Shown here: positions 26,989-33,738 of the stretch, one piece after another | Position numbering within the stretch: position 1 is the first letter of the stretch | Layout of the letters: each line of letters starts with the position of its first letter | IMG/VR virus record: IMGVR_UViG_3300035666_000015 | Span: 5,541-69,540 of that record | DNA: 64,000 nucleotides | Source of the DNA: a virus | Strand: one strand, 5' to 3' | Program-made: the position numbers and the translations under genes | Notes under the pieces: generated by a model | Database searches by the model: none | What the model saw: only the letters and a program-made list of their open reading frames with translations | What the model was told of the DNA's origin: nothing

Positions 26989-29900
26989 TTAGCCTACACC
27001 ATAAAAGTAGAGATCATTATCAAAGTTTTCTGGGACTTCACGAAGAATATCATCCTTCTTGAGTATATCAGAATCCTCTATAACACGACCTCCGATCTTA
27101 GACTTACCCGCAACAGGGATAAGCCCTTTTTCAATAGCCTCGTTCAAGTAACTGTCATATGTTTCTTTTGGCAGTCCTCTGGCTAACATTTCATCTAACA
27201 CACTCTTGAATATATTACGATCCATTGCATTAGCGTAAATGCCTCTCAATGCTTTTCTAGCATCCAGCATATCAGAGACATTAGTAAAGAAAGCATCATG
27301 AATTGTAGAAGTAGGGATATCATTCTTACTTCCCCAAATATGGAATTGCTTCACTAGTGTAGCATCATTACTGTGGTTCAAGTTAACAGCATACGCTGTA
27401 CGAGCTTTTGTCACATCAGCTATGTCATTAATTTTACCACTCTTATTCAATAGTTCTTCCCACCAATTTAAGCTTGTTTTCTGTGGTATTTGAAGAATAT
27501 TTGTAGTCCACTCACCGTTAGCATTCTTATACAGCAACTTCTCTTCAAAGCTTTGAGTGAAATTCTGTTCAAGTACTTTTCCATCAAAATTTACAGAAGG
27601 AACGTTGGTCCATGCCTTAGGAAGTTTGTTTGCTTTAAACAATTCTACTTCAAAGAGTTTCAATTCTTTAAATAGTTGTCGTTTTCTTATAGCTGATAGA
27701 CTGGTCAATGCACCAATATTTGGCACAGTAATTTCCATTTTCAAATACTTACCACCAGTACGTCTTGCTACAGGTGCTGGAACACCTTCAAGCATTTGTC
27801 TAAGTGGTGCATCTTCAGACCACCAATTAAATCGTTCAAGCAACTGGGCTGATACAGATTTATTTCTTGGCAATCCCAATAACTCACTCAATCGTGCTGG
27901 TAACTTGTAACCAGTCTTAGCTTCTCCAACAACTTGCTGCTTACCTAAAGTTTTCCAATCAAAATCGCTATCAGATGGTTTAGCTTCTTTTAAATAAGAC
28001 TCAGCCAATCTTCCGAAAAACTTTGTGAAATCTTTAAGAATTGGGACTTGTTCGCCTAGATGCTCACTCATGATCTTAGCCACAGCTTTGAAGTCATTCG
28101 GAGTGATTACTTGATCGTAACTAGCAGACATCTTATCAAGAACTGCTCTGGTTTTATTATCTAGGAAGAACAATTCCTCCATTATCTCATCACCAGGTTG
28201 TAAGCCTTTATCAAAGATATCTTTTACATCTTGTCGTAACTGTTTCAGTTCTGCTGTCGTTTCTGGATCGAATCTTTCGTATCTAGCAGCTCTAGCTGAT
28301 ATCTCGTTTAATACCTTATCACGGCTATCAGCGGTAACAACTAGTGTATTTTCTTTCTTACCAAGAACCTTACCGAGCTTGCCTTCGACATTTAGGATGC
28401 CGGTACGTTCTCCTGCTCCGTACAGCGTGACCATATTTTGCGTATGTTCGCATTAACTCGCTACGTTAATACCGAATCCTCATAAAAATAGAAAATTCTG
28501 CTCTATATTCCTACAGAGTTCGGACTATATCTTGCGCAATTGCGCTCCCGCGCTTCCCAGATGCTATCTGGTACGTCTTTCGACTAGTCTCTACACCTTC
28601 AAGATATCATTAACGATATCTAGCTTGGCTCGGTATTGTCCGTTCTGGATATCCACCGAATTCACGGGATTTTAGAAGACCCAATTTGTCAAGCCTTCGC
28701 AGCCTTCCTGAGATCAATCTCAGTTAAGCCAAATCTTTCATTCATCTTTTTGAAACGAGGATCGTTAAATGTTAATCTAGCGATCTCATCATACCCTTTT
28801 GTTATACGTTCGCCCAGTTTTTTCCAATCCGTATTTGGTAAATAGTCCCGCTGTTACACCCAAATAGATTGGCGATTTCTCTGTCACTTACGCAACTCTC
28901 AATTAACGATTTAATCTTAACAACGTCTTCCCTACACAATTTAGGTCTGTTATCACGTAGCGGTGGGAGAGCACACAAGGGCTCTACATGTTTCCAAGCT
29001 CTACCAACTCTAATATTAGAAATTGTCCCTACACTGACACATAATGTATCTGCTAAACTCTGGGGACCAGCACCCTCTAGAAGCGCTAACTTGATCTCAG
29101 AAACCAATGCTTCATCGAGCTTGGCGTGTTTCATCTTTGATCCCCGCTGCATTAATCCTGTATCATATGCATGTTGCGTATTAGCGGAAGCGGTGCACCA
29201 TTCTAGATTGTCAGCGTTATTATTTAGCTTGTTTCCGTCTAGATGATTTACATAAGGTAGCTTCTGTGGGTTGTCACAATAAAGGGTAGCTACCATCCGA
29301 TGTACTCTGAATGATTCTTTGAGATAAGAGTCATATAAGCAGAGGTATCCTCCTTGATTCTTGAAAGTCTTCCGCACCTTATTTGTTGTTAAGTTTATAA
29401 CAGTTCCATCTTTCGACACCCCGTATGGTGTATCTAAGTACTGCTTTGGCATAAATGCTCCAGTCATGTATTGAGAATTCTCATAGTTACCTATAAGATC
29501 AGACTATATCTTACGTCCGTGTTCCCGTGTTTCGAATCACATGGATCCTACGTATTTCTACTAGTCGTTGCACTACTCTTCATGCACATCTTGTGCGAAT
29601 AGCTCAGTATTGTCCACTAGGGAGTTCCACTGAATTAACGGGATTTATAGAGACCATATATGTTTAGCCTCTGTTTCTGAGAAGTAGGAACCACATTGCT
29701 CAATTCAGCTAACTTCTTATTTCTAGTAGTTATCGCAATAATCTGAGCGCCTGATGATGAGGCATCTTGCTCAAGAGCTAATGAAGTCATGTACTCAGAT
29801 AACGTTTCCAGATTCTTTTTAGAGTATGGAGTATTTAGATTCTTAGATTTTAGATACGAATCTATTTTAGTAGTTTCGATAGCTAATCTAAAGAATTTAC

Positions 29901-32900: not shown

Positions 32901-33738
32901 CATCGTAGAAGGCTCTTTGCTTACTAGAAAGTTTTGCTAAGTTTTGTTTTCTTACTTGAACTACACCTTCTAACTTTGAAACATCTTCCCACTTCTTGAT
33001 TATCGGTGTAGTTACAGAGCGACATCTGAAGTGAGCAGGAGGCAGCATATCTCGCTGATCTACAGTGTATATCTTACCATCTCTAGCCTTACAAATATCG
33101 CTTGTCCTTGAATCAAGCACAGCAATATATTGCCAACCTTCAAGCACCTCTTTATTCGCCACAAAGACTGCGTGGTCTGCTTGAGCATGCACACTGGTCA
33201 TTGCTGTTATCACTAAAGATTGGGAGCTATTTCTAGAAATCTTATGAACATTCCCACGTCTAATTTCAAGAGCAATCTGCTCCATATCAAGACCTTCCGA
33301 GATACCTCTTCTTATTATCTGCTCTAGACGACGCTTCTCTGCTACATTCAAACCCACCCATCCAGCAGCAAGGGTCATGTTATTGTAGATCGGTGTTTTT
33401 AGCACTAACTCTTCAGCTACCCGCTTCTTAGGGCGATTGGTTCTCCAGATACGGCCTACATTTGCGTCTAAAGCTTGAAACAAGAAAGAAACTTCGTCAA
33501 GTGCATACTCAATGAGATTCTTTTTACTATTCTGATAGAGCTCGTTATACGTAGCATCGAGCTCTTCTTTCAATAACTTCTTTTGATTTTTTAATGAACT
33601 GTTTAATACGATTTCCTTTGTACGTACCTCATGCTCACTAAGCAGGGTGTTTAGGTTAGACATCAGACCATCCTCGTAACGGCGCAGCAATGCTGCACGT
33701 TCTGTCAAGGTGTCTGATATCTGAGTATTTACATTCAT
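26989..33738 (-). CDS. MuF-domain / T7-family RNA polymerase fusion (putative virion RNAP), spliced; exons 33738-31136, 30172-29666, 28794-28692, 28440-26989; 1554 aa
   Basis: MuF motifs GWQYIAVLDSRTSDIC...PPAHFRCRS; RNAP motifs DHRARIY..FIGPQSGE, A (DASSSGAQ), B (RKAAKAQNMVTLYG, restored only by splicing), VNLNHSNDA and C (IHDAF). Exon lengths sum to 4665 nt, in frame. Confidence 0.88.
28441..28691 (-). ncRNA. group I intron 3 of the MuF-RNAP gene (251 nt, no ORF), inside motif B
   Basis: 5' exon GAAGGCU pairs with IGS GGUCUUC (U.G at the junction); P7 GACUA/UAGUC; terminal G; removal yields Rx3Kx7YG. Confidence 0.9.
28795..29665 (-). mobile_element. group I intron 2 of the MuF-RNAP gene (871 nt) with HNH ORF
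   Basis: P1 AGAGGCU/GGUCUCU; CAACGACUAG and AAGAUAUAGUCU core; terminal G; splicing gives QKQRL-YDEIA. Confidence 0.88.
28802..29467 (-). CDS. intron-encoded HNH homing endonuclease
   Basis: RVHRMVA...VNHLDGNKLNNNADNLEW followed by two HTH-like repeats. Confidence 0.9.
   Translation of the reverse strand: MTGAFMPKQYLDTPYGVSKDGTVINLTTNKVRKTFKNQGGYLCLYDSYLKESFRVHRMVATLYCDNPQKLPYVNHLDGNKLNNNADNLEWCTASANTQHAYDTGLMQRGSKMKHAKLDEALVSEIKLALLEGAGPQSLADTLCVSVGTISNIRVGRAWKHVEPLCALPPLRDNRPKLCREDVVKIKSLIESCVSDREIANLFGCNSGTIYQIRIGKNWANV
30173..31135 (-). mobile_element. group I intron 1 of the MuF-RNAP gene (963 nt) with HNH ORF
   Basis: P1 with U.G after ACGUU; UUCAACGACUA and GAUAUAGUCU core; terminal G; splicing gives GPQSGETF-RPFLNT. 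Confidence 0.88.
30212..30874 (-). CDS. intron-encoded NUMOD4/HNH homing endonuclease
   Basis: YEVSDTGSVR, KVHALVA, VNHIDTDKRNNASSNLE, two C-terminal HTH-like repeats. Confidence 0.9.
   Translation of the reverse strand: MIDWKQFRDTDYEVSDTGSVRRMTTGRILKPSDDGHGYLKVSLWINKIQYTFKVHALVAECHLPAAVGEVNHIDTDKRNNASSNLEIITHVENMEHAWANGCMHVGSECVIAKLDEELVSEIIFEMIDGRTNSEIAQFYPVVRGTISKIRDRKTWKHVLPGISIPESPNKNEPKLVAAEVREIKRLYAKGYSLSELGRTFEVHSGTVSAIIQGKTWKNIT

Follow-up and report, generated by a model that had tools for sequence, protein, structure and literature searches.

We analysed a 64,000-nucleotide (nt) stretch, called the window here, of the virus record IMGVR_UViG_3300035666_000015, a 69,540-bp genome of an uncultured lake-water phage that CheckV rated complete; coordinates are those of the window unless stated otherwise. 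On the minus strand it holds a gene, termed MuF–RNAP below, whose four exons join into 4665 nt and encode 1554 amino acids (aa) without an internal stop codon. The N-terminal third of the product is a minor head protein of the MuF/SPP1 gp7 type, and the remaining ∼1000 aa form an RNA polymerase (RNAP) of the T7 family. The explanation that we favour, and that we hold to be reasonably likely as a whole, is that three group I introns are spliced from a late head-operon transcript to yield one 1554-aa protein, which docks at the portal, is ejected and serves early transcription, after which a second RNAP takes over. By analogy with other phages, the capsid of this phage probably contains a phage-encoded enzyme for transcription.

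Exons and group I introns of the MuF–RNAP gene

The splice junctions were fixed by local tblastn with gp47 and gp49 of EBPR siphovirus 1 and with the DSS3_VP1 homologue, which is a single open reading frame (ORF), together with the rule that a U precedes a group I intron and a G ends it. The resulting arrangement is as follows.

31136..33738, minus strand: exon 1 (codons 1–867 plus 2 nt), with the MuF-type head-morphogenesis part, the RNAP N-terminal domain and DHRARIY (T/DxxGR)
30173..31135, minus strand: intron 1 (963 nt), ribozyme core at 31145–30903, then an HNH/NUMOD4/HTH homing-endonuclease ORF at 30874–30212 (220 aa)
29666..30172, minus strand: exon 2 (507 nt), with palm motif A, DASSSGAQ; 57% identity to EBPR gp47 residues 848–1009 (tblastn)
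28795..29665, minus strand: intron 2 (871 nt), core at 29676–29480, then an HNH/HTH endonuclease ORF at 29467–28802 (221 aa)
28692..28794, minus strand: exon 3, a 103-nt micro-exon whose end is the first half of motif B (...RKAAKA); 79% identity to EBPR gp47 residues 1010–1043 (tblastn)
28441..28691, minus strand: intron 3 (251 nt), without an ORF and inside motif B; core match at 28752–28501
26989..28440, minus strand: exon 4, with the second half of motif B (QNMVTLYG), an expanded fingers region, NHSNDA, motif C (IHDAF) and the C-terminus; Pfam PF00940
33738–31129 (869 aa), 29997–29635 (120 aa), 28434–26989 (481 aa) and a short frame at 28853–28692, minus strand: the ORF pieces as called

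All three junctions fit the U/G rule (3/3), and removal of the insertions restores the reading frame. In an alignment with 62 uninterrupted homologues (51–60% identity), not one had a gap in the 10 columns on either side of a junction, and the residues flanking the junctions (GETF/RPFL, KQRL/YDEI and AAKA/QNMV) are those of the intact homologue genes. Together with the stop-free frame, this bears out the original prediction, made from the sequence, that four ORF fragments join into one 1554-aa protein.

Each of the three insertions gave a full-length match to the Rfam family RF00028 (gathering score 50), with 99.6 bits (E = 1.9e-25) for intron 1 and scores slightly below the gathering score for intron 2 (48.5 bits, E = 3.9e-10) and intron 3 (47.7 bits, E = 6.7e-10). 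The 5′ splice site of intron 1 lies after U31136, which forms the U·G pair in P1, and its terminal base is G30173; intron 3 has its P1 U·G pair at U28692 and, from the sequence, the terminal base G28441. The three cores could be aligned with one another as well as with that of a fourth intron, which interrupts the second RNAP gene of this phage. The ribozyme cores of introns 1 and 2 are each followed by a ∼220-aa ORF with the Pfam domains HNH_3 and HTH_38, to which NUMOD4 is added in intron 1. The two endonucleases are 39% identical, and their ORFs end 39 nt (intron 1) and 7 nt (intron 2) short of the 3′ splice site. At the site matching intron 3, EBPR siphovirus 1 carries an HNH-bearing insertion. 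The introns are selfish homing elements that sit in the most conserved polymerase motifs and lie outside the protein's function. A conserved 12-mer of the group I core (GATGATATAGTC), present in intron 1 and in the intron of the second RNAP gene, has a third copy at 57239–57250, which would bring the total to five group I introns in the 69.5-kb genome.

Such interruptions appear to recur throughout the family. Among the 120 best database homologues (within a length limit of 477–1521 aa), ∼61 ORFs end at the motif B site (residues 1071–1077), 22 at the intron 1 site (∼868), 3 at the intron 2 site (∼1037) and 8 close to the HSxD motif (residue ∼1424); contig ends may account for part of these. 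Only 20 of the 120 extend to the C-terminus. Three of the recurrent ends coincide with the intron sites of the window gene, in keeping with the earlier expectation that ORF callers would see disconnected pieces. The clustering at catalytic motifs fits recurrent insertion of homing introns into a gene that is a hot spot across the family. Because of this recurrent insertion, annotation shows only a 'head protein', and gene callers and pipelines miss the architecture.

The polymerase module and the spread of the fusion

The original prediction had read every single-subunit RNAP motif in order. The spliced protein indeed holds them all, with DHRARIY at residue 849, DASSSGAQ at 1004, motif B (RKAAKAQNMVTLYG) at 1066–1079, NHSNDA at 1426 and IHDAF at 1451. 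The T/DxxGR motif, the Asp of motif A, the Lys and Tyr of motif B (RxxxKxxxxxxxYG), HSxD and the His-Asp of motif C are invariant in 46 family sequences, including relatives of 26–33% identity, and a hidden Markov model (HMM) alignment to T7 RNAP placed DHRARIY on DWRGRVY and HSNDA/IHDAF on HSQDG/IHDSF. The profile PF00940 (RNA_pol) matched exon 4 just over its cut-off and the DSS3_VP1 homologue with 27.1 bits.

We modelled the residues equivalent to 365–1554 of a 60%-identical intronless homologue (L020) with AlphaFold2 (AF2) from a 46-sequence alignment, which gave a mean predicted local distance difference test (pLDDT) score of 88.0 and a predicted template modelling (pTM) score of 0.84. 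The matches listed by Foldseek against the PDB were all T7 or mitochondrial RNAPs (best E = 7.2e-18). VIA-align superposed the model on T7 RNAP with a Z score of 30.1 and a root-mean-square deviation of 3.2 Å over 527 residues, model residues 195–1169 lying on T7 residues 38–883. The Z scores were 25–27 for the yeast and human mitochondrial RNAPs, 18–19 for the mini virion RNAP (mini-vRNAP) of phage N4 and 12.5 for N4 RNAPII. The checks by RNA_pol HMM and by predicted structure that had been suggested both gave a match. Since the structural alignment covers T7 residues 38–883, the polymerase module begins near residue 555 and includes the N-terminal domain. A separate AF2 model of window exon 4 (pLDDT 78.3) aligned with T7 residues 634–882 (Z 6.9, 240 residues) and with the same region of mitochondrial RNAPs; these Z scores are weak, as is usual for a fragment, but the register is the expected one. 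In a wide fold search the exon 4 model reached a middling best Z score of 7.4. Its helical insert (model residues 32–108) matched generic helical bundles only, so that no fold was assigned to it, and an unrelated archaeal regulator that topped a sequence-profile search of the PDB (E = 0.0026) was disregarded.

An exhaustive phmmer search of 1.84 billion representatives with exon 4 returned 68 matches, none of them an ordinary ∼880-aa RNAP; those longer than 1400 aa span 1411–2481 aa, far above the length of a free-standing RNAP. Between the Tyr of motif B and the Asp of motif C lie ∼375 aa in the spliced protein and ∼173 aa in T7 RNAP, where this interval includes the promoter-specificity loop. 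The ∼200 extra residues relative to T7 fall within residues 1078–1453 (window ∼28420–27290) and comprise, in the models, the helical insert and a six-stranded beta region before NHSNDA. Judged by its motifs and the models, the polymerase part is a complete, highly diverged T7-family single-subunit RNAP of ∼1000 aa that is apparently active, with a catalytically competent centre, and its family is by sequence a deeply diverged RNAP lineage, remote from known RNAPs.

A megablast search with the whole locus against 50,697 phage records gave no match, and tblastn found the polymerase part in only four of these records, namely EBPR siphovirus 1, DSS3_PM1 and DSS3_VP1 (two records). The DSS3_VP1 homologue (YP_010105321) is one 1463-aa ORF in the interval between portal and major head protein; it carries PF04233 and PF00940 and is annotated 'head morphogenesis'. 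With this single ORF and the 62 uninterrupted homologues, the intron-less genes of the same fusion that had been sought are at hand. In the protein database, 207 relatives were found among 8000 candidates scored, many of ∼1490–1520 aa with both Pfam domains, and their JGI names are those of gp7-family head-morphogenesis proteins only. Of 599 candidate stretches in IMG/VR, at least 519 encode a relative, and MuF and RNAP motifs share one open frame in 80 of the 80 IMG/VR loci kept. Among 20 long representatives that span the family (including those of 1411–2481 aa), PF04233 was found in 19 and PF00940 in 16. A scan of 185,579 species genomes detected the fusion in a single metagenome-assembled genome, on a phage-sized contig with no usable host assignment, which argues that the phages with this fusion are not prophages. 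On this sequence evidence, the design is conserved in hundreds of phages.

The MuF module, the head operon and a second RNA polymerase

The MuF part and its neighbours, together with the second RNAP gene, are located as follows; every gene around the fusion lies on the minus strand.

33010..33324, minus strand: MuF (Phage_Mu_F) core domain, residues 139–243; Pfam PF04233, E = 4.4e-14, 53.6 bits against a cut-off of 29.6
33735..35183, minus strand: portal gene (482 aa); phrog_145, E = 1.3e-47; its stop codon overlaps the MuF–RNAP start (ATGA)
26288..26947, minus strand: scaffolding protein gene, downstream of the fusion; phrog_206
25050–26282, minus strand: major head protein gene, after the scaffold gene; phrog_247
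2..931, minus strand: second, ordinary T7-type RNAP (N-terminal part), extending to genome position ∼4226 (genome C1 ∼4226–6471; locus L004 1420–3581); PF00940 with 100.8 and 81.6 bits in two frames

The N-terminal MuF domain that had been predicted was recovered by PF04233, with the HxxCRS motif at residue 236, and the gene occupies the canonical MuF slot, with the portal gene upstream and the scaffold gene downstream. PF04233 matches only once in the 69.5-kb genome, which makes the fusion the minor head protein of this phage. The original prediction also spoke of a ∼500-aa unknown middle region, and this did not hold. The profile phrog_241 ('head morphogenesis') covers residues 1–521 (E = 5e-62), which assigns much of that region to long MuF-type proteins, and from residue ∼555 the structural alignment to the T7 RNAP N-terminal domain begins.

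The order of portal, fusion and head genes was likewise found in DSS3_VP1 and in 29 related loci that were aligned. Among 62 loci in which the fusion ORF is complete, 41 have a large upstream ORF whose end lies within 700 nt, and in the 29 of these 41 that were aligned, it is 38–44% identical to the window portal in every case (29/29). A predicted complex of portal and MuF part scored 0.00 against a mark of 0.32, which we counted neither for nor against binding.

A run of small genes ends with the second RNAP gene, whose motif B is interrupted by a group I intron (Rfam 74.5 bits) behind the residue matching the intron 3 site. A second T7-type RNAP (∼735–743 aa, or split) was present in all three complete relatives searched, namely DSS3_VP1, one IMG/VR genome of 74.8 kb and another of 79.0 kb; the partial record of EBPR siphovirus 1 contains the fusion without it. 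In a profile comparison of exon 4 with the C-terminal piece of the second RNAP, the motif C region alone aligned, with a probability of 6.9%. The two polymerases of this phage look like very divergent paralogues with introns at a homologous position.

Proposed role, alternatives and known systems

In the sequence of events that we propose, the fusion protein would first be made late, together with portal and scaffold; its late synthesis follows from the gene order and the overlap of its start codon with the portal stop codon. The MuF part would then dock the protein, in a few copies, at the portal inside the procapsid, as is suggested by SPP1 gp7, for which docking at the portal is cited in passages of PMC5512222. 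On infection the protein would leave the capsid with the leading end of the DNA and transcribe the early region without the host RNAP. Finally, by analogy with the polymerase relay of N4, the second, ordinary T7-type RNAP from the small-gene region may take over. For a polymerase made only together with head proteins, early transcription is an obvious use only when the enzyme travels on to the next cell.

The fusion might instead be made late without its polymerase ever being delivered, the MuF part acting in head assembly and the polymerase, perhaps after cleavage, in the cell that makes it, where it might, for instance, serve late genes or prime replication. We think this unlikely. For intracellular transcription a second, ordinary RNAP is already there, MuF/gp7 proteins are virion components, and the strict covalent linkage described above (19/20 and 16/20 representatives; 80/80 loci) would be hard to explain if the two parts acted separately. 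What speaks for such a role is that the gene lies in a late operon, that packaging is argued by analogy and that the ∼200-aa expansion between motifs B and C could mean a specialised function.

A further alternative accepts packaging and ejection and assigns the polymerase mainly to pulling in the genome by transcription from the leading end, as in T7 and, for part of the genome, N4, or to making primers. MuF would place the polymerase at the portal beside the DNA end that leaves first, and the enzyme is complete with a conserved active site, both of which suit this role; it is, however, compatible with early-gene transcription, and the evidence fits both functions alike. As the main function, we regard it as quite improbable.

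The original prediction that MuF serves as a packaging and ejection tag for a polymerase that starts early transcription independently of the host stands in part, namely for the fusion itself, the complete T7-like polymerase, the MuF slot coupled to the portal, the sole MuF domain and the conservation together with a second RNAP. Several points weigh against our favoured reading, in which the polymerase is ejected and transcribes early genes. Virion presence, ejection and rifampicin-independent early transcription are drawn by analogy from SPP1 gp7, MuF-effector fusions and the N4 virion RNAP (vRNAP), and a protein of ∼176 kDa would need to pass through a long tail. The PF00940 score of exon 4 is marginal (E = 7.3e-5, 22.2 bits against a cut-off of 22), as is the match to T7 RNAP in the PDB sequence-profile search (E = 0.04–0.07). 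No promoter-like 12-mer reaches three copies, and no multi-copy promoter-like motif was found. A 29-bp motif (GCGCAAAA-N4-CCATCTTATATGAAAGA) with two copies upstream of small-gene clusters (3048–3076 and 5152–5180 (−); 0 expected by chance) is a candidate phage-RNAP promoter, two copies being too few to judge, and its 16-nt core was not above chance with three mismatches allowed. The terms 'RNA polymerase', 'RNAP', 'MuF' and 'minor head' are absent from the main text of the Naomviridae paper (PMC8323127), and later papers on these phages lack such terms too; passages of the DSS3_VP1 papers report no virion proteomics.

The remaining points of this kind come from RNA data. Seven sequencing runs, all lake-water metagenomes, contained at least half of the sampled words, two of these runs being possible sources of the DNA studied here, and we placed contigs (assembled sequence rather than raw reads) of three metatranscriptome runs and one DNA run on the window. 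No spliced joint was reported for these contigs; much of the exon sequence is without cover in the three RNA runs, which carries no weight, and the RNA libraries may also hold DNA. A contig of a related strain from an RNA library (four differing letters, one gap) spans the border of intron 3 and exon 4 unspliced. Another RNA-library contig matches up to exactly 30173, where intron 1 is predicted to end, and its 18 further letters are those of 30797–30814, with one mismatch, at a site 321 nt inside the intron. There, the terminal G is joined behind GCGUU, and the 5′ exon ends in ACGUU. Circularisation directed by the guide sequence would give such a junction, which may be a trace of circularised intron 1 RNA and is suggestive but weak. 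Equally suggestive but weak is a further RNA-library contig whose match, four letters short of the contig end, stops at 28440, where exon 4 begins. The word share of 0.87 in the DNA run was considered as a sign of a missing intron and rejected, as the contigs of that run cover intron sequence.

These data also bear on whether the gene could be a decaying, non-functional remnant broken by mobile insertions that do not splice, which we consider highly improbable. The lack of spliced joints among the RNA contigs and the two Rfam scores below the gathering score (48.5 and 47.7 against 50) are what such decay would lead one to expect, yet the weaker Rfam matches still reach E ∼1e-10 and all three junctions restore the frame with U/G ends and without gaps against 62 homologues. 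Moreover, a contig ends precisely at the last base of intron 1, joined to a site that resembles the 5′ exon end, and the gene is the sole MuF gene of a genome rated complete.

Among known systems, coliphage N4 (Schitoviridae) offers a close parallel to the proposed delivery of the fusion with the DNA, as gp50 is likewise a T7-superfamily single-subunit RNAP encoded among late/virion genes, is proposed to enter with the DNA and start early transcription and is followed by a second phage RNAP. According to passages of Iyer 2017 (PMC5512222), N4 gp50 is a protein of ∼3500 aa that has regions of its own for injection and encapsidation and also a zincin-like domain. The window protein, in contrast, has 1554 aa and an N-terminal MuF part as its putative carrier; in its exon pieces and in the DSS3_VP1 homologue, Phage_Mu_F and RNA_pol were the only Pfam domains, with no zincin-like domain as in N4 gp50. 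Whereas N4 is a podovirus, the relatives found here are siphoviruses, and by the model the polymerase is structurally nearer to T7 (Z 30) and mitochondrial RNAPs (Z 25–27) than to N4 mini-vRNAP (Z 18–19). With T7 RNAP and other free-standing phage RNAPs it shares the fold over T7 residues 38–883 and all catalytic motifs; it differs from T7 RNAP in its link to a head protein, its place in the head operon and ∼200 additional aa between motifs B and C. Packaged polymerases also free early transcription from the host in phiKZ/AR9-type jumbo phages and crAss-like phages, where the enzymes are multisubunit or of another fold; these offer a functional analogy only.

The N-terminal MuF part followed by an enzymatic cargo that is predicted to be packaged and injected recalls the MuF-effector fusions, that is, MuF polymorphic toxins (Jamet 2017) and polyvalent proteins (Iyer 2017). 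Their cargoes include RNases, 2H phosphoesterases, RelA/SpoT, phosphoribosyltransferases (PRTases) and ADP-ribosyltransferases (ARTs), as given in passages of Iyer 2017 (PMC5512222) and Jamet 2017 (PMC5576092); the former states that virion RNAP modules occur in N4-like phages only, and the word 'polymerase' does not occur in the main text of the latter. Here, by contrast, an RNA polymerase of ∼1000 aa takes the place of these cargoes, and the phage has no MuF besides the fusion. We found no description of a MuF–RNAP fusion in the full-text literature, with supplements and subscription journals outside this coverage, nor in passages of PMC5512222, PMC5576092, PMC8323127, PMC12697855, PMC12669031 and bioRxiv 10.1101/2025.10.29.685362. 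The fusion unites two known ideas, a virion polymerase of the N4 type and the delivery of cargo by MuF, and it is widespread and apparently undescribed.

The nearest named relatives are EBPR siphovirus 1 and the cultured roseophages DSS3_VP1 and DSS3_PM1 (Naomviridae), all with a homologous fusion in the slot after the portal. In EBPR siphovirus 1 it is split into gp47 and gp49 (52–57% identical) at the motif B site by the HNH-bearing insertion. The DSS3 proteins are only 26–33% identical, and databases annotate them as head proteins only. The DSS3 phages are marine and have DNA containing deoxyuridine (dU-DNA). A similar link to dU-DNA was considered for the lake-water phage and finds no support, as its genome has no match to PF00383, PF02511 or PF00303 (dCMP-deaminase family, ThyX and ThyA), an HD-family dTMP phosphatase not having been searched for. 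DSS3_VP1 has a siphovirus morphotype (passages of PMC8323127).

Virion-delivered single-subunit RNAPs have so far been a hallmark of N4-like podoviruses, and a MuF carrier would, if our favoured explanation is true, represent a second route of delivery. Host-independent early transcription would then be far commoner than thought, given the at least 519 IMG/VR stretches with the fusion, a Naomviridae gene annotated as a head protein only would gain a function, and the range of MuF cargoes would grow from small toxins to a large enzyme, with ∼1000 aa passing through a long tail. The broader statement, that a global clade of ∼70–80-kb long-tailed phages (from lakes, wastewater and the sea, including the cultured Naomviridae) runs a two-polymerase programme independent of the host RNAP, with the first enzyme as MuF cargo and as a second, independent invention besides N4, could in our judgement as well be right as wrong. 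As DSS3_VP1 is a cultured model that grows on Ruegeria pomeroyi, the idea is directly testable. The diverged RNAP lineage, with its expanded fingers region, also merits attention in the study of promoter recognition and as an orthogonal tool for transcription.

Elsewhere in the window, 48297–48742 marks the AT-richest kilobase (GC 0.32). It contains seven copies of a 21-bp tandem repeat (48304–48453) and two perfect 25-nt homopolymer runs (48574–48598 and 48718–48742), and may serve as an origin of replication or in regulation.

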